A DNA stretch of 64,000 nt from an uncultured Mycoplasmatota bacterium (GCA_946488855.1 CAMLWC010000001.1:2688-66687), one strand, 5' to 3'; shown: positions 1 to 44,878, counted from the stretch's first letter. Program-made: numbers and translations. The notes: a model not told the origin generated them from the letters alone.

Positions 1-1121
1 TGATTTCTGATTATTTGGTATATCCAAATAAGTTTATGGAAAACCAATTTTTAGATGCTTATATGATTCGTGATTTATATAATGGAAAAATATTAAATGT
101 AGGCTATCCAAGAAATTCTGTTTTTTTTGATAGAAATCGTGAAAAAGAATTACGTGAACAATTGAATTTGAAAAACAAAAAAATATATATATATATGCCA
201 ACTTGGCGTGGAGTTATGACTAACAAAGAAAATGAAAAACAAATAAAAATTATTAACCAATATTTACAATATATAGATAATAATTTAGATGATAATCAAA
301 TTTTTTATGTAAAATTGCATTTATTTGTTAATAATCAGATTGATTTTACAAAATTTACAAAAATTAAACCTTTTCCGAAAAATTTAGAAACTTATGATTT
401 TTTAAACTTAGCGGATATTTTGATAACTGATTATTCAAGTGTATTTTTTGATTTTGCTAATACTGGCAAGAAAATTATATTATTTGCTTATGATGAAGAA
501 GAGTATTTATCATCAAGAGGTTTATATTTAAAATTTGGGGAATTGCCTTTTCCTATAGTGAAAAATGTTGAAGATTTAATTAAAGAATTAAAAAATGAAA
601 ATTATAAAAAATATAATGAATTTCAAAAAAAATATTGTGAATTTGATTCGTACGATGCTACTAAAAAATTATGCAATATTATATTTAATAAACATAATAA
701 TAAAGAGAGAAGAAATAAAAAATTCAATTTAGTTTATATAAGTGATGGTAATATTGAGTTAGCTGCTAATAATTATTTTACTTATTTGCTTAATAAAAAT
801 GACATTAATTGTTACTTCTTAATTGATCAACAAATATTAAAAAACAATTTAAATTTTGTAAAAATTTTAAACGAAAAAGTAAATTATATACCGTTGACAA
901 ATAAAATTTTTATTTCTTTAATAGAAAAAATAAGAATAAAAATTTTTAATGATAAAAAATTAATGGATAAATGTTTGTTTAGAGAAGCATTGCGTAATTT
1001 TGGCAATATATCTTTTAATAAAATAATTTATATAGGAAGAGAAAATAAGTATAAAAAAATAATAGAAAAAATTGACCATAATCAATTTGAGCATAAAAAT
1101 TTATATGAGGAGGATTTATGA
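1..1121 (+). CDS. CDP-glycerol glycerophosphotransferase (TagF/TagB/TarF family), 5'-truncated at window edge
   Basis: Open frame runs from the window start. The motif IYIYMPTWRG matches the conserved PTWR motif of teichoic-acid glycerophosphotransferases. The stop overlaps the tagD start. Confidence 0.75.
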   Translation, partial: ISDYLVYPNKFMENQFLDAYMIRDLYNGKILNVGYPRNSVFFDRNREKELREQLNLKNKKIYIYMPTWRGVMTNKENEKQIKIINQYLQYIDNNLDDNQIFYVKLHLFVNNQIDFTKFTKIKPFPKNLETYDFLNLADILITDYSSVFFDFANTGKKIILFAYDEEEYLSSRGLYLKFGELPFPIVKNVEDLIKELKNENYKKYNEFQKKYCEFDSYDATKKLCNIIFNKHNNKERRNKKFNLVYISDGNIELAANNYFTYLLNKNDINCYFLIDQQILKNNLNFVKILNEKVNYIPLTNKIFISLIEKIRIKIFNDKKLMDKCLFREALRNFGNISFNKIIYIGRENKYKKIIEKIDHNQFEHKNLYEEDL

Positions 1122-1561
1122 AAAGAATATTAACTTATGGAACATTTGATTTATTACATTATGGACATATTAGATTATTAAAAAGGGCAAAAGCATTGGG
1201 TGACTATTTAATAGTTGCATTAAGTACAGATGAATTTAACGAATTAAAAGGTAAAAAAGCATATCATAACTATGAAACAAGAAAAATGATGCTAGAGGCT
1301 ATTAGATATGTTGATTTAGTTATTCCTGAAGAAAATTGGGAACAAAAAATAAATGATATTAAAGAATATAAGGCTGATGTTGTTGTTATGGGAAGTGATT
1401 GGGCTGGCAGTGATAGATTTAATTATTTAACTGATTATTGTGAAGTTGTGTATTTAGATAGAACAGAAGGAATATCTACTACAAAAATTAAAGAAGAATT
1501 AAAGCTTCAAGAACCTATAAATGGTGTAAATCAAATTCCAGAGCCAAAAAGTACCAAATAG
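1118..1561 (+). CDS. tagD: glycerol-3-phosphate cytidylyltransferase
   Basis: The N-terminus ILTYGTFDLLHYGHIRLL is the HxGH cytidylyltransferase motif. Length is 147 aa and it is overlap-coupled to the upstream gene. Confidence 0.9.
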   Translation: MKRILTYGTFDLLHYGHIRLLKRAKALGDYLIVALSTDEFNELKGKKAYHNYETRKMMLEAIRYVDLVIPEENWEQKINDIKEYKADVVVMGSDWAGSDRFNYLTDYCEVVYLDRTEGISTTKIKEELKLQEPINGVNQIPEPKSTK

Positions 1562-1611
1562 TACTTTTTAATTATTAAAATATATGATAAAATGTTATTA
1601 TGGGTGATAAA

Positions 1612-2397
1612 ATGAAGAAATTTTTTAATGATATTAAAAAATATTATAAATATATAATTTATTCTACTAAATCTAACTTAAAGACTGAGGTAGCTAATTC
1701 ATATCTAAATTGGCTTTGGTGGATATTAGATCCTTTATGTTTTATGTTAGTATATACATTTATAGTAGAAATAGTATTTAAAACAAGAGAAGAAAATTTA
1801 CCTGTTTTTGTTTTAGTTGGTTTAACAGCATGGAATTTCTTTAATATTACGGTTAATTCGAGTGTTAAATTAATTGCTAACAATAAATCGATTGTTACTA
1901 AAGTATATATTCCTAAATATATATTATTACTAATTAAGATGTTTACTAATTTATTTAAAATGTTTATTTCTTGGGGATTAATATTAGTTATGATGTTGAT
2001 ATTTAAAGTGCCATATACACTTTATATGTTGCAATTCTTTCCGGTTTTAATTGTATTATTTGTACTGTCGTTTGGAATAGCCTGTATTTTAATGCATTTT
2101 GGTGTATTTGTTGAAGATTTGAGCAATGTTATGACGATATTACTTAAATTGACTTTTTATTTATCTGGTATATTTTATGCAATTTCAACAAGAGTACCTA
2201 GTCCTTATAACAGAATATTATTAAATTTAAATCCCGTTGCATTTATAATTGATTCATTTAGGAAAACTTTTTTAAATGCTCATTTAGTGAATTATCGAAT
2301 GTTAGGATTATGGCTTTTAGTTGGTGTATTTTTATCATTTATTGGTATTAAAACAATACAAAAATATGAAAATAGTTATGCGAAGGTGACAAAATGA
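1612..2397 (+). CDS. tagG: teichoic acid ABC exporter permease (ABC-2 type)
   Basis: Six predicted TM segments, about 260 aa, and positioned immediately before an ATPase gene. Start placed at MKKFF behind a GGGTGA RBS; the ORF-track start at 1600 has no RBS. Confidence 0.75.
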   Translation: MKKFFNDIKKYYKYIIYSTKSNLKTEVANSYLNWLWWILDPLCFMLVYTFIVEIVFKTREENLPVFVLVGLTAWNFFNITVNSSVKLIANNKSIVTKVYIPKYILLLIKMFTNLFKMFISWGLILVMMLIFKVPYTLYMLQFFPVLIVLFVLSFGIACILMHFGVFVEDLSNVMTILLKLTFYLSGIFYAISTRVPSPYNRILLNLNPVAFIIDSFRKTFLNAHLVNYRMLGLWLLVGVFLSFIGIKTIQKYENSYAKVTK

Positions 2398-3128
2398 GTA
2401 AAGATGCAATTACAGTTAAAGATTTACATATAAGTTATAGAACATTAAAGGGATTTTCAATAAAAAAATCATTATTGAAAATGAAAATGAGTAAAGCTGA
2501 AGTATTTGAGGCAGTTAGAGGAGTAACATTTAGTGTTGAAAAAGGTAAAATATTAGGAATTATTGGTAAAAATGGTAGTGGTAAATCAACAATGTTAAGA
2601 AGCATTGCGGGTATATTTTCTCCTGATTCAGGCACAATAGATTTACACGGCAATTCAGTTTCATTATTGTCAATTGGCGTTGGATTTCAAAACAAATTAA
2701 CTGGTTATGAAAATATATTTTTGTCTGGTATGTTATTAGGCTTTTCAGAAAAGGAAATAAAGGAAAGAGTAGATGAAATAATTGAATTTTCTGAGTTAGG
2801 TAAATTTATTTATAAACCAGTATCAAGTTACTCGAGTGGTATGTATTCTAAATTAGCTTTTTCTATAACCGCAATATTAGAAACTGATATTATGTTAATA
2901 GATGAAGTATTTAGTGTTGGTGATGTCAAATTTAAACAAAAAAGTTATAACAAAATGAAGGAATTAATATCTGATGAAAACAGAACTGTAGTAATAGTTT
3001 CACATAGTTTAGGAACGTTAAAAGAGTTATGTAATGAAGTATTATGGTTACACGATGGTAAAATTAAACAAATAGGTGAGCCTGAAAAAGTTATAGCTGC
3101 CTATGAAGAATTTATGAAAAAAGATTAA
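2394..3128 (+). CDS. tagH: teichoic acid ABC exporter ATP-binding protein (short TarH-like form)
   Basis: Walker A motif GKNGSGKST, signature SSGMYSKLAFS and Walker B LIDE are all present. It overlaps the end of the permease gene. Confidence 0.8.
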   Translation: MSKDAITVKDLHISYRTLKGFSIKKSLLKMKMSKAEVFEAVRGVTFSVEKGKILGIIGKNGSGKSTMLRSIAGIFSPDSGTIDLHGNSVSLLSIGVGFQNKLTGYENIFLSGMLLGFSEKEIKERVDEIIEFSELGKFIYKPVSSYSSGMYSKLAFSITAILETDIMLIDEVFSVGDVKFKQKSYNKMKELISDENRTVVIVSHSLGTLKELCNEVLWLHDGKIKQIGEPEKVIAAYEEFMKKD

Positions 3129-3167
3129 AAAAATAAAAAATTATGATATACTTATTAAGGTGAGAGA

Positions 3168-4949
3168 ATGAAAGAGTTAGAATATCCTTTTGATGGGGAA
3201 TATATATTAAAGAAAAAAAAGACTTTAAAAAAAGAATTGTTAAAACAGAATAAAAAATTTTTAGAAAAAAATATTGCAATATTAGGTGGTTCAACTACCA
3301 ATGATATAAAGCTAGTTTTAGAATTGTTTCTTTTAAATTATGGAATAAAAGCTAATTTTTATGAATCAGAATACAATAAATTTTGGGAAGATGCAATGTT
3401 CGAAAATAAAGAACTAGAAGAATTTAAACCAGATATTATTTATATATGTACTTCTAATAAAAATATCATCAACTATCCTAATTTAAATGATAGCAAAGAC
3501 GATGTGAAAGAAAAATTAAATTCAGAATATATTAGATTTGAAGATATGTGGCAAAATTTAAAAAACAAATACCAATGTCCAATTATTCAAAATAATTTTG
3601 ATTGCTTATCTTATCGTATTTTAGGAAATAAAGATGCGACTGATTATCGGGGAAAAACTAATTTTATTACTAAATTAAATTTGAAATTTTATGATTATGC
3701 TGAGAATAATGCTAATTTTTATATTTTAGATATCAATTATTTATCAAGTCAATACGGGTTAGATAAATGGCAAGATCCTTTTTATTGGTATATGTATAAA
3801 TATGCGATGGCGGTTCCTGCTATCCCATTATTATCCTTTAATCTTGCAAATATAATAAAAGCAATATATGGCAAAAATAAAAAAGGGTTAGTTTTAGATT
3901 TGGATAATACTTTATGGGGTGGAATCGTTGGTGATGATGGAGTAGACAATTTAATTATTGGTGAAGAAACTTCTGAAGGACAAGTCTACACTGATTTTCA
4001 AAAATATTTAAAAGAAATAAGCCAAATGGGAATATTATTAAATATTAATAGTAAAAATGATTTGGAAAATGCATTAGCAGGATTAAATCATATTGATGGA
4101 ATATTAAAGCCTGATGATTTTATCGTTATTAAAGCTAATTGGGAGCCTAAATCTAATAATATGTTAGCAATTGCTAGTGAATTAAATTTAGGCGTAGACA
4201 GTTTAGTATTTGTTGATGATAATCCAGCTGAACGAGCGATTGTTAAAGATTATATTAATGATGTGGCAGTTCCAGAAATGAATGAACCATATAAGTATAT
4301 TCAAGTTATTGATCATTCAGGATACTTTGAGAATATCAACTTATCAGGTGATGATGTCAAAAAAAATAAAATGTACAAGGATAATATTGAAAGAAATAAA
4401 ATGATATCATCCTTTGAAAATTATGATGATTATTTAAAATCATTAAATATGAAGGCAACAATTGATAAATTTGAACCAATTTATATGGCTAGAATTGCTC
4501 AATTAACCAATAAAAGCAATCAATTCAATTTAACTACTAAAAGATATACCCAAAATGAAATTGAAGATACTGCTAATAATGCTGAATATATTACTTTGTA
4601 TGGTAAATTGGAAGATAAATTTGGTGATAATGGAGTTGTATCAGTAGTAATTGGCAAAAAAACTAATGAAAAATTAGATATCGATTTATGGATTATGAGT
4701 TGTCGAGTTTTAAAACGAGATATGGAATTTGCAATGATGGATTCATTAATTAAAGAATGTATAAAACATAATATTAAAGAAGTTTATGGATATTATTATC
4801 CAACAGTTAAAAATGGTATGGTTAAGGATTTTTATAAAATTCAAGGCTTTACAAAAATTAGTGAAGATAAAGATGGTAATACTGTTTGGAAATTTGTTAT
4901 AAATGATTATAAAAATAAAAATAAATTTATAGATGTGGAGGAGAAATAA
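3168..4949 (+). CDS. FkbH-like HAD-superfamily (IIIC) protein, putative acyl-carrier-protein loading enzyme
   Basis: HAD motif I LVLDLDNTLWGG occurs mid-protein, preceded by an N-terminal extension of about 230 aa. An ACP gene follows directly. Confidence 0.6.
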   Translation: MKELEYPFDGEYILKKKKTLKKELLKQNKKFLEKNIAILGGSTTNDIKLVLELFLLNYGIKANFYESEYNKFWEDAMFENKELEEFKPDIIYICTSNKNIINYPNLNDSKDDVKEKLNSEYIRFEDMWQNLKNKYQCPIIQNNFDCLSYRILGNKDATDYRGKTNFITKLNLKFYDYAENNANFYILDINYLSSQYGLDKWQDPFYWYMYKYAMAVPAIPLLSFNLANIIKAIYGKNKKGLVLDLDNTLWGGIVGDDGVDNLIIGEETSEGQVYTDFQKYLKEISQMGILLNINSKNDLENALAGLNHIDGILKPDDFIVIKANWEPKSNNMLAIASELNLGVDSLVFVDDNPAERAIVKDYINDVAVPEMNEPYKYIQVIDHSGYFENINLSGDDVKKNKMYKDNIERNKMISSFENYDDYLKSLNMKATIDKFEPIYMARIAQLTNKSNQFNLTTKRYTQNEIEDTANNAEYITLYGKLEDKFGDNGVVSVVIGKKTNEKLDIDLWIMSCRVLKRDMEFAMMDSLIKECIKHNIKEVYGYYYPTVKNGMVKDFYKIQGFTKISEDKDGNTVWKFVINDYKNKNKFIDVEEK

Positions 4950-5189
4950 ATGACAAGAGAAGAAATTTATAAACAATTAGATGAGGTTTTTCAAGATGTA
5001 TTTGATGATGAAAGTATACAAGTAAATGATAGTACTACTGCTGATGATATTGAAGATTGGGATAGTTTAGAACATATTAATTTAGTTGTAGCTATTGAAA
5101 ATAGATTTGGTATTAAATTTAATATGAATGAAGTTACTTCAATGAAAAATGTTGGGGAAATGGTCGACATTATTTTAGAAAGAATATGA
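4950..5189 (+). CDS. acyl carrier protein
   Basis: 79 aa, acidic, with the DSL phosphopantetheine attachment motif in IEDWDSLEHINLV. Confidence 0.8.
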   Translation: MTREEIYKQLDEVFQDVFDDESIQVNDSTTADDIEDWDSLEHINLVVAIENRFGIKFNMNEVTSMKNVGEMVDIILERI

Positions 5190-5605
5190 AACATTTTAAT
5201 TTTGAAGAAATTGATGTAGGATATGAAGTAAGCTTTGATTATAATATTACCAATGATAAAATGCAAAAATTTTTAGAAATAACTGGAGATATTAATCCTT
5301 TGCATAATGATTTATCTTATGCAAAATCAAAAGGCTATTCTGAAAAAGTTGTTTATGGTATGCTTACTTCAGCAATATTATCAACACTAGCAGGAGTTTA
5401 TTTACCAGGAGAAAAAAGTTTAATTCACGAAGTATCGGTTAGCTTTGTTAAACCTGTTTTTATTTCAAATTGTCCTTTGTTAGTCAAAGGAAAAGTAGTT
5501 AAAAAAGATGAAAGGTTTAAACAAATTGAAATCAAATGTAGTATATTTGATAATAAAGACGATAAAGTGCTAAGAGGAAATATGAAAATTGGATTTGTTG
5601 ATTAG
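5186..5605 (+). CDS. MaoC-like (hot-dog fold) dehydratase
   Basis: 139 aa with hot-dog/MaoC-like features (NPLHND, GYSEKVVYGML). It overlaps the ACP stop. Confidence 0.55.
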   Translation: MKHFNFEEIDVGYEVSFDYNITNDKMQKFLEITGDINPLHNDLSYAKSKGYSEKVVYGMLTSAILSTLAGVYLPGEKSLIHEVSVSFVKPVFISNCPLLVKGKVVKKDERFKQIEIKCSIFDNKDDKVLRGNMKIGFVD

Positions 5606-5618
5606 GCGGGGTGTGTTT

Positions 5619-7121
5619 ATGCAAATTGTAAATTTTAGTTTTTTAATTTTTCTATTTATTAGTGTAATTGTATACTATGCTTTTTCTAAGAAGAATAGAT
5701 GGTTTGTTCTTCTTGTTTCTAGTATACTTTTTTTCTTGTTCGCAAGTTCTTGGAAATTATTATTATATTTAATTTTTGGTATTATAACGACCTTTTTAGG
5801 TACAAATTTAATGGGAAAATATTCTAAAAAAAGAAAATTAATTTTATTTTTAACATTGTTTTCTATTTTAGGGCCTTTATTTCTTTTAAAATATTTTAAT
5901 ATATTTCCTCTTACGATAAATGCTTTTAGTAAGCTATTTAGCCTTGATTTTAAAGTAGGTACATTATCTTTATTAGCACCATTGGGAATATCTTATTATA
6001 CCTTATCTTTAACAGGTTATGTTATTGATATTTATAGAAAAGCTTATAAGCCTCAAACAAACATCTTAAAGCATAGTTTATTTGCTTGTTATTATCCAAT
6101 TTTAATTTCTGGACCATTTGTTAGATATAATTATATGGAAAAAGAATTATTTGAAGAAAAGAAGTTTAATTTTGATAATATTTTTTTAGGGTTTTATAGA
6201 ATAATTTATGGTTTAATGAAAAAATTAGTCATTGCTGATCAGTTAGCGCTTGTAGTTAATACTATATTTGATAATTATACTACTTATACCGGTTTTTATA
6301 TTGTTTTTGCAGTTATATTGTACGCTATTCAAATTTATACTGATTTTTCTGGATGTATGGATATTATTTATGGGGCTTCAAAAATGTATGACATTAAATT
6401 AATCGAAAATTTTGATAGTCCATTTTTTTCAAAAAATTTAACTGAATTTTGGCGAAGATGGCATATATCATTAGGAACTTGGGCAAAAGATTATATTATG
6501 TATCCTTTGTTAAAATCAGAAATATTCCAAAAACTAGGTAAATCTTGTAAAAATAAATTTGGTAAAAAATACGGTAAATTAATTCCAACAGTTTTAGCAA
6601 TATTAATTCTTTGGTTATTAATTGGCTTATGGCACGGCGCGTCATTTAGATATATTTTTGCTGCTGGTGTTTTACCTTGGATTTATTTAACATTGGGACA
6701 AATATTCGATGATGATATAAAAAAACTTAATAAGAAATTACATATTAATACTGATTGCTTTAGTTTTAGATTATTTCAATCTTTACGAACTTTTGGCTTT
6801 ATGTGTATTATATGGCTAGTTGCATGTTCACCTAGTTTATTAGGAACTATAGATGTTATAAAAGAGATTTTTGTTTTCTTTGATTCAACACTTATAAAAA
6901 ATTTACCAGAAATACCAGTATTAATTATTTTAATATGTAGTATTTTAGTGATTATAGTTGATTATCTAAATTATAATAATATTAATGTTTTTGAAAAATT
7001 TAAAGATCAAAATTTATTTTTTAGATGGTTTGTTTTATTTGCCGTAATAATCATAATTTTAATTTTTGGTGCATATGGACCTGGATATAGCGCTAGCGAA
7101 TTTATATATGGAGGTTTTTAA
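5619..7121 (+). CDS. membrane-bound O-acyltransferase (MBOAT; DltB/AlgI-like)
   Basis: Polytopic membrane protein carrying the MBOAT motif FWRRWHISLGTW and a conserved His. Start placed at MQIVNF after the upstream stop. Confidence 0.8.
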   Translation: MQIVNFSFLIFLFISVIVYYAFSKKNRWFVLLVSSILFFLFASSWKLLLYLIFGIITTFLGTNLMGKYSKKRKLILFLTLFSILGPLFLLKYFNIFPLTINAFSKLFSLDFKVGTLSLLAPLGISYYTLSLTGYVIDIYRKAYKPQTNILKHSLFACYYPILISGPFVRYNYMEKELFEEKKFNFDNIFLGFYRIIYGLMKKLVIADQLALVVNTIFDNYTTYTGFYIVFAVILYAIQIYTDFSGCMDIIYGASKMYDIKLIENFDSPFFSKNLTEFWRRWHISLGTWAKDYIMYPLLKSEIFQKLGKSCKNKFGKKYGKLIPTVLAILILWLLIGLWHGASFRYIFAAGVLPWIYLTLGQIFDDDIKKLNKKLHINTDCFSFRLFQSLRTFGFMCIIWLVACSPSLLGTIDVIKEIFVFFDSTLIKNLPEIPVLIILICSILVIIVDYLNYNNINVFEKFKDQNLFFRWFVLFAVIIIILIFGAYGPGYSASEFIYGGF

Positions 7122-7122
7122 T

Positions 7123-8205
7123 ATGAGGGAATGTAAAAAAAATATTATTGACATTACTAAAATATTGATTTTTCTAATTTTATTTGTATTAATTTTTATA
7201 TTTTTAACTTATATTATGAAGCCTATAAATGTTAATTTAAAAAATATTGCTGGATTTTACAATGAAGAAAAGAATAGTTTAGATATGGTATATATTGGCG
7301 GAAGTGCAGCATTTGTTTATTGGCAGCCTTTAAAAGCTTATGAGGACGAAGGAATAGCTTCATATAATTTTGCTGTTAATAGTATTCAAGCGGAAAGTTA
7401 CAAATATATGATTAAAGAAGTCTTGGAATATCAAAATCCCAAATTAATTTTAATTGATGCGAGAGCATATAGCTATCGAGATAATGAAAAAAAAGGACCT
7501 CAATCGGCATATTATTATAATTTGACTACAGGTATGGCTTTTTCTAAAAATAGATATGATTTTATTAATGATAATGTTTTAAGTGTATTAGGTGATGATC
7601 CTATTAATTATCATTTCGATTTATTTAAATATCATACTAATCGAGATGGTATTGATGTAAAGAATTCTATAAAAATTATGTTAGGAATGTATGAAAATAT
7701 TTATAAAGGTTTTGGAATTTATCAACGCGTGCATCCAATTGTAAAACAAGATTTTCAAACTAATGAACAAACTCCAGTTTCTTTAGAAACGGAAAAGATT
7801 TTAATTGATTTGTTAGAATATATTAAAACAATTGATTGTGAAATATTATTTATTGTTTCACCATATTCGATGCCTAAAGAAGATAAAGAAATATATAATT
7901 ATATTGAAGAAAAAATTGTAAAAAATGGTTTTAATTTTTTAGATACTAATGAGTATTATGATGAATTAAATCTAAATTTTGATACTAATTTTTATAATAA
8001 TAATCATGTCAACATTTTTGGAGCAGAAAAATATACTAATTTTTTAGAAGGATATATTAAAGAAAATTATGATTTACCAGATAGAAGAAATGATGATAAC
8101 TATGATTCTTGGGATAAATTATTAACTAATTGGCATAAACAAGTTGATAAAACAAAAGATAAAATAAATATAATGATAGAAGAGGAAGATTGGTATGAAG
8201 CTTAA
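7123..8205 (+). CDS. DltD-like / SGNH-type membrane-anchored protein, putative MBOAT partner
   Basis: N-terminal TM anchor followed by an extracytoplasmic domain. Sits directly after the MBOAT gene, as DltD or AlgJ do. Start placed at MRECKK behind a GGAGG RBS. Confidence 0.45.
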   Translation: MRECKKNIIDITKILIFLILFVLIFIFLTYIMKPINVNLKNIAGFYNEEKNSLDMVYIGGSAAFVYWQPLKAYEDEGIASYNFAVNSIQAESYKYMIKEVLEYQNPKLILIDARAYSYRDNEKKGPQSAYYYNLTTGMAFSKNRYDFINDNVLSVLGDDPINYHFDLFKYHTNRDGIDVKNSIKIMLGMYENIYKGFGIYQRVHPIVKQDFQTNEQTPVSLETEKILIDLLEYIKTIDCEILFIVSPYSMPKEDKEIYNYIEEKIVKNGFNFLDTNEYYDELNLNFDTNFYNNNHVNIFGAEKYTNFLEGYIKENYDLPDRRNDDNYDSWDKLLTNWHKQVDKTKDKINIMIEEEDWYEA

Positions 8206-9031
8206 TAATGGAAATTTTATTCCTCCAATTGGTTTTGGAACTTGGAAATTAAAAAATAATGATGAAACTATCGATATAATAGTAGAAGCAATTAAATCTG
8301 GTTATCATCATATTGATACAGCTTTTGCATATGGCAATGAGGAAACTATCGGAAAAGGTATTAAAAAGGCTAATACAAAAAGAGAAGAATTATTTATAAC
8401 GGGTAAATTATGGAATGATGATAGAGGGTATGAAAATATTATAAATGCTTGTAAAAGAACAATTAAAAATTTAAACTGTGAATATTTAGATTTATACTTA
8501 ATCCATTGGCCAGCTTCTAAAGCAGTACATACTGATTGGATAGAGATTAATAATGAAACTTGGAAAGCATTTGAATATTTGTATGAACAAGGTTTAGTTA
8601 AAGCAATTGGAGTATGTAATTTTAAAATAAATCAATTAGAAGAATTAATAAAAAATGCTAAAATAAAACCGATGGTAAATCAAATTGAATTCCATATTGG
8701 TGCTTATAATAAAGATATATTAGAATATTGCAATAAAAATGATATTCTAGTAGAAGCTTGGAGCCCATTAGGCTCTGGCAAATTATTTAAAGTTAATGAA
8801 TTAAAAGATATGGCTTTAAAATATAATGTTTCAGTTGCGCAACTATGTATTAGATGGTGTATACAAAATAATACTTTACCATTACCTAAAAGCAAAAACA
8901 TTGAAAGAATTAAAAATAACTTAGATGTATTTGATTTTGAAATAGCAAAAGAAGATATGGAGTTTTTAAATAATTTTCGTGAAGTTGGTAATTCGGGTCT
9001 GGATTCAGAAACGATTACATTATTTAATTAA
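8195..9031 (+). CDS. aldo/keto reductase (2,5-diketo-D-gluconate reductase family)
   Basis: IGFGTWKL, IDTAFAYGNE and LIHWP motifs are present. Length 278 aa. Confidence 0.85.
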   Translation: MKLNNGNFIPPIGFGTWKLKNNDETIDIIVEAIKSGYHHIDTAFAYGNEETIGKGIKKANTKREELFITGKLWNDDRGYENIINACKRTIKNLNCEYLDLYLIHWPASKAVHTDWIEINNETWKAFEYLYEQGLVKAIGVCNFKINQLEELIKNAKIKPMVNQIEFHIGAYNKDILEYCNKNDILVEAWSPLGSGKLFKVNELKDMALKYNVSVAQLCIRWCIQNNTLPLPKSKNIERIKNNLDVFDFEIAKEDMEFLNNFREVGNSGLDSETITLFN

Positions 9032-9041
9032 GGAGGTCTAA

Positions 9042-9857
9042 ATGAATTATAGAAAAACGATTTTTTTAACAGCATATTCAGCTAGTATTGCACATATTGC
9101 ATCCGCTTTTTCCATTGTTGAAATACTTGAAGTCTTATATAAAGAAAAAGTTTTAAAGTACGATGCAAATAATCCTAATTGGGAAGATAGAGATAGATTT
9201 ATATTAAGTAAAGGTCATGGTAGTTTAGCACTTTACACAATGTTATCTGAAGTAGGATTTTTTAGCAAAGATTTATTGAAAACATTTTCTAAACCAAATA
9301 GCGTTTTAGGCGGCGAGCCTTGTATACCTAATATTCCTGGTGTTGAAGCAACTACTGGTTCTTTAGGTCATGGATTATCTTTAGCGGTTGGAATGGCTTT
9401 AGCTAAAAAAATAGACAATAAAAAAGAAAAAATATATGTTTTATTAGGTGATGGTGAATGTGAAGAAGGTACGATTTGGGAAGCTGTTATGTTTGCTGTG
9501 CATTATAAATTAGACAATTTAATTATAATTGTTGATTGTAATAAAATTCAAAAAATGGGGACTTTAAAAAGTATAATGAGTATAGATAGTTGGAAGGATA
9601 AATTCAATGCTTTTGGTTGTGAAGTAGTTGAAGTAGATGGACACAATACTTCAGAACTTAAATCTGCATTTAAGCAAAAAAACGTTAATAAACCATTAGT
9701 AATATTAGCGGACACAATTAAAGGAAAAGGAGTTTCAATTGTTGAGAATGATCCAAGATGGCATTGGCGATTACCAAATAAAAAAGAATTAAAAATTTTT
9801 ATGAAAGAATTAAACATTAGCGAGGAGGAAATTGAAGAATGCAAAAAGCTTATATAA
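9042..9857 (+). CDS. transketolase, N-terminal (TPP-binding) subunit
   Basis: GHGSLALY and GSLGHGLSLAVGMAL motifs; about 270 aa, typical of the split form. Confidence 0.85.
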   Translation: MNYRKTIFLTAYSASIAHIASAFSIVEILEVLYKEKVLKYDANNPNWEDRDRFILSKGHGSLALYTMLSEVGFFSKDLLKTFSKPNSVLGGEPCIPNIPGVEATTGSLGHGLSLAVGMALAKKIDNKKEKIYVLLGDGECEEGTIWEAVMFAVHYKLDNLIIIVDCNKIQKMGTLKSIMSIDSWKDKFNAFGCEVVEVDGHNTSELKSAFKQKNVNKPLVILADTIKGKGVSIVENDPRWHWRLPNKKELKIFMKELNISEEEIEECKKLI

Positions 9858-10753
9858 ATTCACTATATAAACTATTACAAAAAGATAAAAATGTCATTTC
9901 TTGTTTATCAGATAGTGGAACTGATTATGATGAAATGATTGCTCGTGAATTTCCCACTCAAGTCATCAATTTCGGGATAAGTGAAAATAATAAAGTGGCT
10001 GCAGCGGCAGGTCTAGCCAGTTGCGGTAAAATACCATTTGTTTATACGACTAGTGCTTTTTTGGTATACCGTTCTTATGAATTTATTAGAGACGATATTT
10101 GTTTACAAAATTATAATGTTAAATTAATAGGTATGGGAAGTGGCTTATCTTGGTCAACATTAGGACCAACTCATCATACAACAGAAGATATAGCTTTATT
10201 ATATCAATTACCTAATTTAACTATTTTGTCTCCTTGTTCTCCTAAAGAATTAGAACAATGTATAGATTATGCATATAACCATATAGGACCAGTGTATGTA
10301 AGAATGGGCATGAGTAATGAAAAAGAAATATATGATGAAAATTATAAATTCATTTTTGGTAAGAATAATTTAATAAAAGAAGGTAAAGATATATCTATTT
10401 ATGTAACTGGAAGTATTATTAATGAGGTAATAGAAGCAAGTAATAAATTAGAGTCTGATGGTTTTTCTATTAAAATAGTAAATGTTGCAACTATTAAACC
10501 TTTTGATAAAAATAGTATTATAAATGAAAAAAACAAGTATATTGTTACTGTTGAAGAACAAAATATACTTGGTGGTATAGGTAGTATTATAGGTAATATC
10601 ATTGCTGAAAATAATTTAGACATAAAATTATATAAAATTGGTTTGAATGATTCTTTTGCCAAAGGATACGGAACTTATAAAGAAATGTTAAAAATGAATA
10701 ATTTAGATGGTGACAGTATTTATAATATTATCAATTCAATATTATCGCAATAG
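9839..10753 (+). CDS. transketolase, C-terminal (pyrimidine-binding) subunit
   Basis: About 300 aa, overlap-coupled to the N-terminal subunit. The pairing is typical of two-subunit transketolases. Confidence 0.8.
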   Translation: MQKAYINSLYKLLQKDKNVISCLSDSGTDYDEMIAREFPTQVINFGISENNKVAAAAGLASCGKIPFVYTTSAFLVYRSYEFIRDDICLQNYNVKLIGMGSGLSWSTLGPTHHTTEDIALLYQLPNLTILSPCSPKELEQCIDYAYNHIGPVYVRMGMSNEKEIYDENYKFIFGKNNLIKEGKDISIYVTGSIINEVIEASNKLESDGFSIKIVNVATIKPFDKNSIINEKNKYIVTVEEQNILGGIGSIIGNIIAENNLDIKLYKIGLNDSFAKGYGTYKEMLKMNNLDGDSIYNIINSILSQ

Positions 10754-11060
10754 AAACTGTATAATTTATTTCGTGTGAAATAGATAATAAAATGTTATAA
10801 TTTTTAAAAATGGCAAATGGTGCGCCATTTTTTTTGTTTAATATTTCTATTTCCTTCATATGTGGATTTTCATTGTTTAATGCTTTAATTATTGCCTCTT
10901 TAGCTGTAAATCTACCACATAAAAATTCTATTTTTTTATGACCTTTTTTTCTTTTAAATATTTCTATTTCCTTGTCCGTTAAAACGCAATTTATAAAATT
11001 ACTATCATTTATGTCTATTCTTTTGTTTTCGATGATATCAATTCCTACATTATTAATCAT
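10731..11060 (-). CDS. acpS: holo-[acyl-carrier-protein] synthase (4'-phosphopantetheinyl transferase)
   Basis: Motifs VGIDIIENKRI, GRFTAKEAIIKAL and GAPF. Start placed at MINNVGIDI behind AGAGGAAA. It overlaps the stop of the upstream tagO-like gene. Confidence 0.8.
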   Translation of the reverse strand: MINNVGIDIIENKRIDINDSNFINCVLTDKEIEIFKRKKGHKKIEFLCGRFTAKEAIIKALNNENPHMKEIEILNKKNGAPFAIFKNYNILLSISHEINYTVSIAIILN

Positions 11061-12129
11061 TTTTTTTCCTCTTGAAATCAAATTTTTCTAAAATACTTTT
11101 TTTATGTTCTATTACAACGTTTGTATTTAAAATAAATATTAAAACTAACAACATTAATATGCCATACATTACATATCCAAGTTGTCTATCCACTAATACA
11201 TATACAATAGAAGTAAATGCAAATAAAGCATCTATTAAACAAATAATTCTTACTGTTTTTTGATGAGAAAATTTCATATTTAATAATTGATGATGAATGT
11301 GAAATTTATCAGGCTTAGTAATTTTTTCATTTTTTAAATATCTTCTTATGATAGCAAAGATAGTATCTAAAAATGGAATAGCTAATATCGCAAATGGTAT
11401 AATTATAGAAGTCATTGTTACATTTTTAAATCCCAATAGTGCAATTATACTTATAATATATCCTAAGAACATAGAACCAGTATCACCCATAAATATCGAA
11501 GCAGGATGACGATTATAGGTTAAAAATCCTAAACAACAACCTAACATTATAAAACATAATATAAAATTTAATCCTTGTGAACTTTTGAATACAGCAATAC
11601 ATCCGACCGTTAAAAAGAAGATACTACTAATGCCAGCAGCCAAGCCATCTAATCCATCTATTAAATTCATACAATTAATAAAAGATAAAATAAATATTAT
11701 TGTAATTGGATAAGCAAATATGCCAAAATTAATATATATACCAAAGGCACTAATACTTGATAATAAAATGTTGCCATAAATTACAACTACTAAAGTTGCT
11801 AAGAATTGCCCAATCAATTTTGTTTTTGCATCTAAAGGTTTAATATCATCGATCATTCCAGTAATTATAATAATAAAACTACCGATAAATATTGAATTCA
11901 TTAAATCGTTTGGTTGACAAAAAGCCATATAGCCAAAGAGAAAACCTAAGAATATTGCTAGACCACCTAATCTTGGAATAGGTACTTTGTGAACCTTTCT
12001 TTTATTTGGAATATCCATAGCTCCTATATGTTCAGCTATCTTTTTTACAAAAGGTACCAATAAATAAACAAATAAAAAACAACTAAAAGTCACTAATAAT
12101 ATTTTAATAAAAATTTCTGTTGACATCAT
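11053..12129 (-). CDS. tagO: UDP-GlcNAc:undecaprenyl-phosphate GlcNAc-1-phosphate transferase (MraY/WecA family)
   Basis: Polytopic membrane protein with DDIKPL and NLIDGLDGLA motifs of glycosyltransferase family 4, placed next to a WTA locus. Confidence 0.75.
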   Translation of the reverse strand: MMSTEIFIKILLVTFSCFLFVYLLVPFVKKIAEHIGAMDIPNKRKVHKVPIPRLGGLAIFLGFLFGYMAFCQPNDLMNSIFIGSFIIIITGMIDDIKPLDAKTKLIGQFLATLVVVIYGNILLSSISAFGIYINFGIFAYPITIIFILSFINCMNLIDGLDGLAAGISSIFFLTVGCIAVFKSSQGLNFILCFIMLGCCLGFLTYNRHPASIFMGDTGSMFLGYIISIIALLGFKNVTMTSIIIPFAILAIPFLDTIFAIIRRYLKNEKITKPDKFHIHHQLLNMKFSHQKTVRIICLIDALFAFTSIVYVLVDRQLGYVMYGILMLLVLIFILNTNVVIEHKKSILEKFDFKRKKND

Positions 12130-12261
12130 TACACCTCTAAATATAATTTTATCAAATTTTTAAAAAATAGTCCATAACTATAATTACCATATTTTCCCAT
12201 TATTCTAACACACAATTTCTACATTCATTAGTTATAATGTTTATAGAAGTGAGGTGATAAT

Positions 12262-12492
12262 ATAAACATAAAAATAATTGGAACCAATTGTAGTAATGGT
12301 ATGAAATTATCTAAAATGGTTGATAAAGCAGTAGAAGAAATAAATTGTAATGCTGTTATTGATAAATTAGATGATTCATCTAAAAATAAATATGGAATTA
12401 AAAATGTTCCGGGTCTTGTAATTAATGGCCAAATAGTTAGTCAAGGAAAGGTGTTGTCTATAAGAGAAATAAAAAAATTATTATTAGCTTAA
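12262..12492 (+). CDS. thioredoxin-like 'redox-active disulfide protein 2' homolog, apparently degenerate
   Basis: The C-terminus VPGLVINGQIVSQGKVLSIREIKKLL matches the small Trx-like family. In-frame upstream residues read IKIIGTNCSNG where GxGCxxC is expected. The first ATG (12301) lies after that motif, and ATA occupies the expected start position. Confidence 0.35.
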   Translation: MNIKIIGTNCSNGMKLSKMVDKAVEEINCNAVIDKLDDSSKNKYGIKNVPGLVINGQIVSQGKVLSIREIKKLLLA

Positions 12493-12518
12493 AAGATTCT
12501 AAAATGAATCTTTTTTTC
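12492..12518 (+). terminator. rho-independent terminator
   Basis: AAGATTC-TAAAATG-GAATCTT hairpin followed by T7. Confidence 0.55.
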
Positions 12519-12570
12519 TTGTTTTTTTATTTAATATAAAGTATAATTTATATTGTAGGAAGGTGAGTTT

Positions 12571-13080
12571 GTGGATAAAAGTAAGAAAAAAGAAATAGTT
12601 AAAATGTTATTAAAAAGTAAAGAAGAAATTGATGAAGAAGAATTAATGGAATTATTATTTGATCAACCAATAGCTGTTGATGTTGATAAGTTAGATAAAA
12701 ATAATTTAAAATTTTCTGATAAAGTTGCTGATAAAATCACAGAAATAGCTGGTAGCTGGTATTTTATAATTGGATTTTCATCATTTTTGATTATTTGGAT
12801 TCTTTTAAATATTTATTTATGGGATAATGTTGATCCTTATCCATTTATTTTACTAAACTTATTATTATCATGTATTGCTGCTTTACAAGCTCCTATCATT
12901 ATGATGAGTCAAAATAGACAATCAAAAAAAGATAGTTTAAGAAATCAAAATGATTATCGTATTGATTTGAAAAGTGAACTTATTTTAGAGCAACTTCATG
13001 ATCATATTGAATTAATTATTTCTAATCAACGAAAAATTATAAAAAAATTAGAAGAAAAAGATATTGACTTAAATAAATAA
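12571..13080 (+). CDS. DUF1003 domain membrane protein
   Basis: GTG start behind GGAAGGTGAG. Two TM segments followed by the conserved QNRQSKKDSLRNQNDYRIDLK segment typical of DUF1003. Confidence 0.6.
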   Translation: MDKSKKKEIVKMLLKSKEEIDEEELMELLFDQPIAVDVDKLDKNNLKFSDKVADKITEIAGSWYFIIGFSSFLIIWILLNIYLWDNVDPYPFILLNLLLSCIAALQAPIIMMSQNRQSKKDSLRNQNDYRIDLKSELILEQLHDHIELIISNQRKIIKKLEEKDIDLNK

Positions 13081-44710: not shown

Positions 44711-44787
44711 GGACCCTTAGCTCAGTTGGTTAGAGCATCCGGCTCATAACCGGGCGGTCGTAGGTTCGAGTCCTACAGGGTCCACCA
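44711..44787 (+). tRNA. tRNA with CAU anticodon (elongator-type; likely tRNA-Ile2/lysidine or tRNA-Met), CCA encoded
   Basis: Cloverleaf GGACCCT/AGGGTCC acceptor, CTCATAA anticodon loop and a TTCGAGT T-loop. G1:C72 and the absence of three GC pairs in the anticodon stem argue against initiator tRNA. Confidence 0.85.
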
Positions 44788-44793
44788 TATAAT

Positions 44794-44878
44794 GCGGATG
44801 TGGCGAAATTGGCAGACGCACTAGACTTAGGATCTAGCGCCTTATGGCATGGGGGTTCAAGTCCCTTCATCCGCACCA
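44794..44878 (+). tRNA. tRNA-Leu (anticodon UAG), CCA encoded
   Basis: GCGGATG/CATCCGC acceptor, anticodon loop CTTAGGA and a long variable arm (class II). Confidence 0.85.

Follow-up and report, generated by a model that had tools for sequence, protein, structure and literature searches.

A putative FkbH-loaded, carrier-protein-dependent MBOAT-SGNH acylation cassette in a wall teichoic acid locus

The stretch of DNA analysed here (64,000 nucleotides, hereafter the window) carries a group of teichoic acid genes at its left end. The list of open reading frames (ORFs) begins at base 15, beside that end, with a partial TagF-like CDP-glycerol glycerophosphotransferase gene (15-1121, + strand; PF04464, E 3.2e-44), followed by genes for a TagD-like cytidylyltransferase (1118-1561, +; PF01467, E 1e-26), a TagG-like ABC-2 permease (1600-2397, +; PF01061) and a TagH-like ATPase (2394-3128, +; PF00005), the last of which scores 209 bits against the TagH model NF010066 and does not reach its cutoff of 320. 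Directly 3' of tagG and tagH lie genes for an FkbH-like loader, an ACP, a MaoC-type dehydratase, an MBOAT, and a membrane-anchored partner with an SGNH fold, P5. An earlier note had described these as five co-oriented genes placed 3' of tagGH in a teichoic acid locus, and every ORF was recovered where the note had put it. The term "overlap-coupled" that it applied to them fits the ACP and MaoC genes, which overlap by 4 bp, whereas the other junctions abut or leave gaps of 1-13 bp. The five genes between 3168 and 8205 are real, but the conserved unit reaches 10753, or 11060 (- strand) with AcpS, so that three to four further genes had been missed. These encode an aldo-keto reductase (8195-9031, +; 278 aa; PF00248, E 3.7e-57), the N-terminal (9042-9857, +; PF00456) and C-terminal (9839-10753, +; PF02779 and PF02780) subunits of a transketolase-like thiamine-diphosphate enzyme, and an AcpS-type phosphopantetheinyl transferase (10731-11060, -; PF01648), whose gene is convergent with the transketolase-like gene and overlaps its end. 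The only further teichoic acid gene on the 3' side is tagO, which encodes a TagO/WecA-type GT4 initiating transferase (11053-12126, -; PF00953, E 5.5e-39). Bases 3168-10753, together with AcpS at 10731-11060 (-), probably constitute one cassette of eight or nine genes.

The first gene (3168-4949, +) encodes a 593-aa protein that scores 264.7 bits against TIGR01686, above the curated cutoff of 146.65, and also matches PF21211 (FkbH_N), in agreement with its earlier description as FkbH-like. The protein comprises FkbH_N, a HAD-IIIC phosphatase domain and a C-terminal acyl-transfer domain, and a match to PDB 3slr spans its residues 20-392. The catalytic residues of FkbH, on which the earlier note had made its reading depend, are all present (D244xD246xT248, D350-D351 and S511-C512-R513), and at least 97% of 50 homologues share them. 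A separate five-sequence alignment shows no difference in the DxDxT, DD and SCR columns from the FR901464 FkbH domain or from a B. cereus homologue of FkbH that adjoins an NRPS. Following reported work on OzmB, we take the Cys of SCR (C512) to be the catalytic Cys of the acyl-transfer domain. One base past the FkbH stop codon begins the gene for a 79-aa ACP (4950-5189, +), an adjacency that is conserved. The identity of the ACP is supported by a PF00550 match (PP-binding, 26 bits) and a DSL serine motif; general ACP models give it up to 38.8 bits, versus 16.6 bits for the DltC model NF003464 (cutoff 68). It is the most conserved protein of the module, with 53-98% identity among the loci in which it was detected.

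The next protein (5186-5605, +; 139 aa) had rightly been named a MaoC dehydratase. This MaoC-type (R)-hydratase/dehydratase matches PF01575 at 50 bits, contains the GDxNPLH motif, and has HTD2 and PhaJ as its best PDB matches. Moreover, it shares 27% identity (E 2e-10) with the N-terminal MaoC domain in the loading region of the FR901464 PKS from Burkholderia sp. FERM BP-3421, which begins MaoC-SDR-FkbH-ACP. He et al. (Angew. Chem., 2014) are said to have found that this module turns glyceryl-ACP into pyruvoyl-ACP and then into lactyl-ACP. Lactyl-ACP formed by FkbH loading modules is on record (PMC7901079). The reductase is interchangeable between families: complete modules carry an aldo-keto reductase in 30 cases and an SDR instead in seven, and an SDR occupied its place in all five loci tested that have no aldo-keto reductase. 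A Subdoligranulum locus contains an FkbH-ACP-MaoC-SDR set with no transketolase-like enzyme and no MBOAT nearby; the thiamine enzyme thus appears dispensable for the basic dehydration and reduction.

Both halves of the transketolase-like enzyme have kept residues for thiamine binding and catalysis. The N-half retains the thiamine motif GDG...N as well as H26, H66 and H261 (E. coli TktA numbering), and the C-half retains the cofactor-activating Glu, E411, and H473. In all 46 module copies, however, H100 of TktA is replaced by Glu and I189 by Lys in the N-half, and R358 is replaced by Q or N, H461 by G and D469 by L in the C-half; R520 is replaced by M in 45 of the 46 and by Asn in the remaining copy (L044). 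The sugar-phosphate residues R358, H461 and R520 are therefore lost in every module copy, as is the acceptor-binding D469, whereas in 6yak/6yaj, a split transketolase of the genuine kind, the canonical residues are intact wherever they can be aligned, two of its ten C-half columns being gaps. With these losses, the enzyme cannot be an ordinary pentose-phosphate transketolase, and an annotation as transketolase (EC 2.2.1.1) would be wrong.

The MBOAT (5619-7121, +; 500 aa) starts at ATG 5619 by the choice of the gene callers; a TTG is found at 5589. Its earlier assignment is upheld by the WRRWHISL motif and by homology to DltB, although PF03062 (MBOAT) stayed below reporting in hmmscan for the window protein, its homologues reaching that model. 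Against the DltB model TIGR04091, it scores 130.5 bits (E 8.6e-38) and does not reach the equivalog cutoff of 375, being homologous across the whole DltB core and not a DltB equivalog. Against the DltB structure 6bug (E 2.8e-14), WRRWHISL aligns with WNRWHMSL and the catalytic His is matched. The DltB-homologous core is followed by two extra hydrophobic segments and then by FIYGGF (7101-7118). A C-terminal F[IV]YxxF is found in nearly all of about 60 MBOAT ORFs, and those without it show evident truncation or disruption. FxYxxF is the acyl-Tyr shuttle motif, and the MBOATs for which a fused tail of this kind is described so far all use acetyl-CoA (PMC12148441). Since the motif is fused to the MBOAT C-terminus, as in PatA, DltX would be superfluous; a rough regex scan of the module, whose length column is unreliable, returned no ORF fragment of at least 30 aa ending in FxYxxF. 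This MBOAT, with its PatA-like tail, nevertheless adjoins a carrier protein.

In P5 (7123-8205, +; 360 aa), a GGS nucleophile-type motif (Ser62 of the fold model) and His296 of the model are invariant, and the model is consistent with an extracytoplasmic SGNH-fold partner bearing a Ser nucleophile-type residue and a His. The protein had been called DltD-like and anchored; it is membrane-anchored and SGNH-fold, but it matches no Pfam family, DltD (PF04914) included, and belongs to a separate SGNH family. P5 is the fastest-diverging component of the cassette, which may reflect different acceptors.

A census took in 63 genomes, at species level, that encode the SGNH partner. In nearly all of them, the MBOAT adjoins that partner. 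At least 42 of the 63 have FkbH and ACP genes beside those of the MBOAT/SGNH pair, minimal four-gene units included, and the full set of FkbH, ACP, MaoC, transketolase-like enzyme and reductase accompanies the pair in 37 loci, in three gene orders. In each order, the ACP and MBOAT genes either adjoin or have no more than the MaoC or reductase gene between them. An AcpS gene adjoins 11 of the 63 loci, in the same position after the transketolase-like genes. With contig-truncated or otherwise anomalous loci set aside, MaoC and the transketolase-like genes are either both present or both absent, and they co-occur across phyla. Self-contained FkbH-ACP-MBOAT-SGNH units are found at L038, L054, L062 and L064. 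At L033 and L068, FkbH is replaced, and an AMP-binding ligase and a PP-binding protein accompany the MBOAT and SGNH partner; an adenylation core motif was found in no ORF of the 64-kb window or of 61 of the 63 related loci, consistent with the earlier statement that DltA is absent from the locus. L044 and L071 possess the ACP, MaoC, transketolase-like and reductase genes, with no FkbH within 10 kb, and type II thioesterase genes follow the SGNH gene at L037 and L041. Five to eight loci have the MBOAT and SGNH partner only, with no ACP; their MBOATs cluster among the ACP-linked ones, so that acyl-CoA might serve this MBOAT family as donor. The surroundings are of teichoic acid type in the window, of Wzx/Wzy type with LCP genes at L006, and of neither type at L005. 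Because the surrounding locus varies in this way, it is the cassette that forms the conserved unit; in the window and its closest relatives, it is inserted between tagGH and tagO. In S. meliloti, an analogous MBOAT-partner-ACP-FkbH unit lies beside KPS genes; its MBOAT ends in FLYQGF, and its partner protein has no detectable relation to the SGNH protein of the window.

We consider it likely that the cassette builds an acyl group on a dedicated carrier and that a glycopolymer of the cell surface is esterified with it, in a carrier-protein-dependent form of MBOAT-SGNH acylation. In the window, the wall teichoic acid specified by the neighbouring genes, of poly(glycerol-phosphate) type, is the presumed acceptor. 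No description of such a D-alanylation-like route with different chemistry was found in the literature. As its family suggests, AcpS would convert the 79-aa ACP to the holo form. FkbH would then take 1,3-bisphosphoglycerate, its HAD domain removing the 3-phosphate and Cys512 holding the glyceryl group for transfer to the ACP, as family membership and the conserved catalytic residues imply. By analogy with the same domain families in the FR901464 loading module, MaoC would remove the 3-hydroxyl to give 2-hydroxyacryloyl-ACP, tautomerising to pyruvoyl-ACP. More speculatively, the transketolase-like enzyme, with Q/G/L/M in place of a sugar-phosphate pocket, might form a carbon-carbon bond on the tethered keto or enoyl group from a non-phosphorylated donor such as pyruvate, either by acetolactate-synthase-like addition to the alpha-keto form or by Stetter-type addition to the enoyl form. 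The interchange of reductase families points to reduction of a keto group by the aldo-keto reductase, or by an SDR in other genomes. The MBOAT His would next move the acyl group from the phosphopantetheine of the ACP to the Tyr of its own FIYGGF tail at the outer face, as homology to DltB/DltX and PatA suggests, and the anchored SGNH protein would take it on Ser and esterify the polymer.

We propose that the final group is a small hydroxy-acyl, lactyl-like if the thiamine-dependent step is accessory; otherwise it is probably a C5 dihydroxy- or keto-hydroxy-acyl. The earlier idea that FkbH stands in for DltA, with a small hydroxy- or keto-acyl group replacing D-alanine, is strengthened at its core by the FkbH catalytic residues, the frequency of FkbH-ACP pairs in the census, the S. 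meliloti analogue and the ligase-containing sister loci. It does need amending: the aldo-keto reductase, the remodelled split transketolase-like enzyme and AcpS imply an acyl group more elaborate than glyceryl or pyruvoyl.

Two systems might instead lie side by side, the MBOAT/SGNH pair O-acetylating from acetyl-CoA in the manner of PatA/PatB, and the acyl group made by FkbH, ACP, MaoC, the thiamine enzyme and the reductase going to a sugar precursor through a cytoplasmic transferase encoded elsewhere. The fused tail, the pairs with no ACP whose MBOATs group with ACP-linked ones, and the Subdoligranulum set with no MBOAT nearby would all suit such a division. We nonetheless find it unlikely, because the conserved block holds no other acyltransferase, the four-gene unit stands alone at L062 with no polysaccharide genes around it, and an analogous unit recurs in S. 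meliloti; moreover, the ligase-ACP-MBOAT-SGNH loci repeat the Dlt logic with the same MBOAT family, and ACP and MBOAT genes stay close together in all three gene orders.

Nor do we expect the acceptor to be something other than wall teichoic acid, such as lipoteichoic acid, a glycolipid, a capsule or a protein, or the pathway to yield a released small molecule. The varied contexts of the cassette, including loci with no teichoic acid genes, and the rapid divergence of P5 could be read that way, but the position between tagGH and tagO and the further copies inside polysaccharide loci with LCP ligases speak against it. All characterised bacterial MBOAT-SGNH pairs, too, acylate envelope glycopolymers (PMC12148441).

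A plain glyceryl or lactyl transfer, with the aldo-keto reductase and split transketolase being ordinary sugar-metabolism neighbours, is very improbable. Split transketolases and aldo-keto reductases are indeed common in low-GC Firmicutes, and FkbH, MaoC and a reductase suffice for lactyl-ACP in the FR901464-type module; the transketolase-like genes, however, track MaoC through three gene orders and across phyla, and each copy lacks all three residues that bind phosphate as well as the Asp that binds the acceptor. Conventional D-alanylation, with a DltA encoded elsewhere loading this carrier, can be set aside almost entirely: the absence of DltA covers the 64-kb window only and DltB is the sole curated sequence relative of the MBOAT, but the carrier scores as an ACP and not as DltC, FkbH accompanies it in at least 42 genomes, ligase-using relatives encode their ligase in the same locus, the shuttle motif is part of the MBOAT, in place of a DltX, and the dehydratase, reductase and thiamine enzyme would be left with no role.

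A bolder proposal can be offered tentatively. The transketolase-like heterodimer could be a new kind of ThDP enzyme whose substrate is tethered to the carrier, namely pyruvoyl- or 2-hydroxyacryloyl-ACP derived from glycerate, to which it would add two carbons. Reduction would then yield a branched or deoxy C5 hydroxy-acid. Many gut Firmicutes, and some Saccharibacteria, might carry this acid on their wall teichoic acids and further surface polysaccharides, attached by a carrier-protein-dependent MBOAT-SGNH pathway that exists as a second one alongside Dlt. A transketolase-dependent loading of glycolyl onto ACP is reportedly known from quinocarcin and naphthyridinomycin biosynthesis (Peng et al., PNAS, 2012), where a transketolase-family thiamine enzyme is likewise said to be encoded with a free-standing ACP. 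Those systems are said to use ketose phosphates and to need a lipoyl-bearing E2-like transferase, whereas the window cassette contains no E2 or lipoyl protein and its phosphate-binding residues are gone.

FkbH-type glyceryl-ACP systems, such as those for FK520 methoxymalonyl-ACP, tetronates and zwittermicin, share the DxDxT, DD and SCR residues and have FkbH beside an ACP. The FR901464 loading module corresponds domain for domain to the FkbH, MaoC, reductase and ACP families of the window. Its product passes to a ketosynthase, however, whereas that of the cassette would pass to an MBOAT and a surface polymer; in addition, the cassette divides its enzymes among separate proteins, most often has an aldo-keto reductase in the reducing role, and includes the extra transketolase-like enzyme, for which the FR901464-type module has no counterpart. 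At the membrane, the cassette resembles PatA/PatB, AlgI/AlgJ/AlgX and WssH/WssI in having an MBOAT that ends, after extra helices, in a fused FxYxxF, and in having the SGNH partner as a second protein. Those types take acetyl-CoA as donor and lack a carrier protein (PMC12148441), whereas the window MBOAT is genomically coupled to a dedicated ACP and to the enzymes that would load this ACP and tailor its acyl group. In Dlt, the loader charges the carrier, the MBOAT His passes the acyl group to the Tyr of FxYxxF, and an anchored SGNH protein esterifies the polymer (PMC12148441). The cassette shares this loader/carrier/MBOAT/SGNH logic, L033 and L068 even with an AMP-binding ligase, but it is not the plain mirror of DltC/DltB/DltD that the earlier note had seen in it. 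It departs from Dlt in having FkbH in place of an adenylating ligase, an ACP-like carrier in place of DltC, a PatA/AlgI-type shuttle fused on two hydrophobic segments in place of the DltX microprotein, and an SGNH partner with no sequence match to DltD. In addition, a dehydratase, a thiamine enzyme and a reductase are proposed to tailor the acyl group while it is still on the carrier.

The five genes that the earlier note had described as a Dlt-like module lacking DltA are all present and were correctly identified. In the window, which has a G+C content of about 23%, a partial TagF-like glycerophosphotransferase, a TagD-like cytidylyltransferase and a TagG/TagH-like ABC exporter (15-3128, + strand) are directly followed by eight tightly packed genes of the same orientation. 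These encode an FkbH-like protein (3168-4949), an ACP (4950-5189), a MaoC dehydratase (5186-5605), an MBOAT (5619-7121), the membrane-anchored SGNH-fold protein P5 (7123-8205), an aldo-keto reductase (AKR; 8195-9031), and a transketolase-like enzyme split over two genes (9042-9857 and 9839-10753), all on the + strand. The unit thus extends past 8205, where it had been thought to end. An AcpS gene (10731-11060, - strand) is convergent with the transketolase-like gene, their 3' ends overlapping by 23 bp (10731-10753), and shares 8 bp (11053-11060) with the gene of a TagO-type initiating transferase (11053-12126, - strand). Past tagO, the genes have no teichoic-acid link; they encode, among others, Fur, rubrerythrin, a recombinase and a PdaC-type deacetylase. 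A promoter and terminator scan of positions 1-12600 gave counts not above those of shuffled sequence. The window's only RNA-family matches are adjacent tRNA-Met (CAT) and tRNA-Leu (TAG) genes at 44711-44878.

A search with the P5 family, taking one genome per species, yielded 63 loci (loci from other genomes are given L-numbers below), nearly all of them from gut or rumen bacteria: uncultured Bacilli, Lachnospiraceae, Oscillospiraceae, Acutalibacteraceae, two Saccharibacteria, one Sphaerochaetaceae metagenome-assembled genome (MAG) and one Verrucomicrobiota MAG. The presence of the cassette or a minimal form of it in MAGs labelled as the last three groups (L016, L025, L038 and L045) reflects either cross-phylum horizontal transfer or binning errors. 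MBOAT adjoins P5 in nearly all loci, and 37 of the 63 contain FkbH, ACP, MaoC, both transketolase-like genes and a reductase. Three gene orders recur: FkbH-ACP-MaoC-MBOAT-P5-AKR-Tkt, Tkt-FkbH-ACP-MaoC-MBOAT-P5-AKR and FkbH-AKR-Tkt-MaoC-ACP-MBOAT-P5, where Tkt denotes the transketolase-like genes. MaoC and Tkt occur together or not at all, except in contig-truncated or otherwise anomalous loci. The neighborhood varies, from the teichoic-acid genes of the window to a Wzx/Wzy locus with LCP ligases (L006) or neither (L005). The unit is a mobile cassette, larger than the five genes. An AcpS gene comes after the transketolase-like pair in 11 of the 63 loci, and two loci have a type II thioesterase gene after P5; such adjacent genes are hallmarks of carrier-protein pathways. 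Two loci, L044 (5220-11014) and L071, possess the transketolase-like genes, MaoC, ACP, reductase, MBOAT and SGNH partner, with no FkbH found within 10 kb.

The FkbH-like protein scored 264.7 bits against the curated FkbH model (cutoff, 146.65 bits) and also contains an FkbH_N domain; the Bacteroides structure 3slr matches its N-terminal two-thirds. Residues D244xD246xT248 and D350-D351 of the HAD domain and S511-C512-R513 of the C-terminal domain are kept in at least 97% of 50 homologues, which bears out the proposal of a loader with its catalytic residues. By alignment, the same residues are common to the FkbH domain of the FR901464 polyketide synthase (PKS) and to a Bacillus cereus homologue that adjoins an NRPS gene. 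The carrier protein has the DSL serine, and its model scores are those of an ACP, not of DltC. The MaoC protein contains the hydratase-2 motif GDxNPLH, its nearest relatives being HTD2 and PhaJ.

Where AKR is absent, an SDR ketoreductase adjoins P5 or ACP (all five loci tested, and seven loci in the census); therefore ketoreduction belongs to the pathway, carried out by either enzyme family. In the transketolase-like enzyme, the thiamine-diphosphate motif and the Glu that activates the cofactor are preserved, as are His26, His66, His261 and His473 (Escherichia coli TktA numbering). All 46 module-linked copies have Glu in place of His100, Lys in place of Ile189, and Leu in place of Asp469, the residue that binds the acceptor 2-hydroxyl; the phosphate-binding residues Arg358, His461 and Arg520 are replaced in these copies by Gln or Asn, Gly, and Met (Asn in L044 only), respectively. 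The genuine split transketolase of Carboxydothermus (6yak/6yaj) keeps the canonical residues where alignable. The module enzyme is not a pentose-phosphate transketolase, and its pocket, now apparently uncharged and more open, would fit a phosphopantetheine-tethered substrate. A housekeeping transketolase was dropped as a candidate because the phosphate-binding residues are lost, and a quinocarcin-type glycolyl loader for want of a lipoyl or E2 protein.

Precedents for the acyl chemistry are found elsewhere. In Burkholderia sp. FERM BP-3421, which produces FR901464, the PKS starts with a MaoC dehydratase, an SDR, FkbH and an ACP, followed by a ketosynthase, and its MaoC domain is homologous to that of the window (27% identity, E 2e-10). 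This module reportedly converts glyceryl-ACP to pyruvoyl-ACP and then to lactyl-ACP. A database paper describes the FkbH loading module as forming D-lactate-ACP from 1,3-bisphosphoglycerate (PMC7901079). In Subdoligranulum variabile (OY725877.1; L083 10001-13418), a free-standing FkbH-ACP-MaoC-SDR set precedes an unannotated soluble ORF, and no MBOAT, SGNH partner or transketolase-like gene was found within 10 kb; the sub-module evidently serves a different consumer there. Thus, the FR901464 module, the database description and the Subdoligranulum set without Tkt suggest that, as its base chemistry, the cassette would take glycerate through a pyruvoyl to a lactyl group on the carrier. A further change would be added to this by the thiamine enzyme. 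The best-precedented options would be that a thiamine-bound two-carbon unit is joined to the alpha-keto group, in the manner of acetolactate synthase or YerE, or that the 2-hydroxyacryloyl form undergoes a Stetter-type addition, with reduction following in either case.

Whether the MBOAT is the client of the ACP can be judged from simpler loci. Self-contained FkbH-ACP-MBOAT-P5 units occur in L038, L054, L062 and L064, some without polysaccharide genes nearby. In L064, a glyoxalase/VOC-family protein of 133 aa (7993-8394), which may be an epimerase-type tailoring step, lies between ACP and MBOAT of an otherwise minimal locus. An analogous unit on pSymB of Sinorhizobium meliloti (L084 5482-10517; CP140955.1 1048481-1053516), a few kilobases upstream of rkp genes for capsule export, consists of an MBOAT ending in FLYQGF, a 409-aa partner, an ACP and an FkbH-like protein. 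The FkbH-like gene occurs in at least 40 S. meliloti records, in one of which the four-gene unit was inspected; in strain 1021 the FkbH match is in two pieces, possibly owing to a frameshift. The 409-aa partner, which carries an LVGGSTT motif, is annotated as a "TonB-dependent receptor", an annotation that looks wrong, and comparing it by profile with the SGNH family gave no significant match. Moreover, in L033 (1122-6531) and L068 (9980-16296), relatives of the MBOAT and P5 are accompanied, in the manner of Dlt, by a PP-binding protein and an AMP-binding ligase. L033 also contains a formyltransferase-domain protein, and in L068 a sodium:solute symporter lies between ligase and carrier; different acyl groups may thus be in use, possibly N-formyl amino acids or acids taken up from outside. 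The MBOAT/SGNH pair and the FkbH/ACP acyl pathway might instead be two independent systems, since five to eight loci have MBOAT and P5 only, with MBOATs that cluster among the ACP-linked ones; either these loci recruit an ACP in trans, or this MBOAT family can use an acyl-CoA. However, the self-contained units, the S. meliloti arrangement and the ligase-type loci all argue for coupling, and the conserved block contains no acyltransferase besides the MBOAT/SGNH pair, so that independence appears improbable. We consider it reasonably likely, from gene content and homology, that the cassette directs carrier-protein-dependent MBOAT-SGNH acylation, placing a small glycerate-derived hydroxy-acyl ester on wall teichoic acid or on the polymer of the host locus. 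The loader and tailoring enzymes were quite probably borrowed from polyketide-type chemistry. The interpretation in the earlier note is thus supported in part, but it has to be extended, the unit being larger than was envisaged, with AKR, the transketolase-like enzyme and AcpS as further members.

The window MBOAT aligns over the entire DltB core, and its catalytic His is retained, but it is not a DltB equivalog, nor is the carrier a DltC. The MBOAT has two additional hydrophobic segments (residues 432-450 and 466-484) and ends in SEFIYGGF. Of about 60 MBOAT ORFs examined, nearly all end in F[IV]YxxF, and those that do not are visibly truncated or disrupted. When a DltX-like microprotein was sought by regular expression, with much noise in this AT-rich DNA, no sizeable module ORF fragment except the MBOAT ended in the motif. 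Of the HMM searches that had been proposed, the FkbH model was passed, but neither the MBOAT (PF03062 included) nor P5 gave a usable Pfam match, even at E 10. For the MBOAT this is probably a filter effect of its very AT-rich, hydrophobic sequence; the L005 and L006 MBOATs, 56-58% identical to it, carry a precomputed PF03062 match.

P5 (360 aa) had no NCBIfam match either, and its profile gave only chance matches to PDB sequences; at E up to 1e-3, the family is large, with 7857 representative clusters. A candidate MBOAT-SGNH fusion (P0315, 868 aa) was rejected, its N-terminal half being unrelated to MBOAT. Nucleotide identity to the closest genome (L009, an uncultured Bacilli MAG) is 98-99% over the stretch from FkbH through MBOAT and in the N-subunit of the transketolase-like enzyme, and falls to 75-80% within the SGNH partner gene (7432-8031). 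The sole extracytoplasmic protein is thus a local hotspot of divergence, which points to recombination or diversifying selection. The gene also seems prone to duplication: L070 has three SGNH-partner ORFs or fragments in tandem (8849-11106), and L066 an additional copy (about 10004) some 3 kb upstream of the FkbH cluster.

A full-text literature search on FkbH, MBOAT, teichoic acid, SGNH and related topics found no description of the cassette. The cassette points to a second, widespread carrier-protein route in which the loader can be exchanged: FkbH, with or without tailoring enzymes, or an adenylating ligase. If so, surface polymers of gut and rumen bacteria would bear a non-amino hydroxy-acyl ester, which could alter surface charge, recognition by phages or antibodies, and resistance to cationic peptides. 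New enzymology is offered by a large SGNH family without a Pfam or other family match and by a remodelled transketolase family, and the idea is open to direct testing through the S. meliloti four-gene unit and through cultured Lachnospiraceae that have the full module (Lachnospiraceae bacterium 47-T17 and X68). In Butyrivibrio sp. AC2005, a short contig showed the MBOAT/SGNH pair only.

Apart from D-alanylation of teichoic acids, no route has been described in which an MBOAT-SGNH pair is supplied by a carrier protein. In Dlt, the MBOAT moves D-Ala from DltC to the Tyr of an FxYxxF motif in the microprotein DltX; in PatA-type MBOATs, the motif is fused at the C-terminus on two extra helices and acetylated from acetyl-CoA, and MBOAT-SGNH systems other than Dlt are stated to be without a carrier protein (PMC12148441). 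The window MBOAT is a hybrid of the two: unlike Dlt, its motif is fused to the MBOAT on extra segments, as in PatA-type proteins, to which it adds a genomically coupled carrier protein. MaoC, reductase, FkbH and ACP are of the same families as in the FR901464 loading module, where they feed a ketosynthase instead. The cassette is of a known kind, from which it differs by its FkbH loader and tailoring enzymes.
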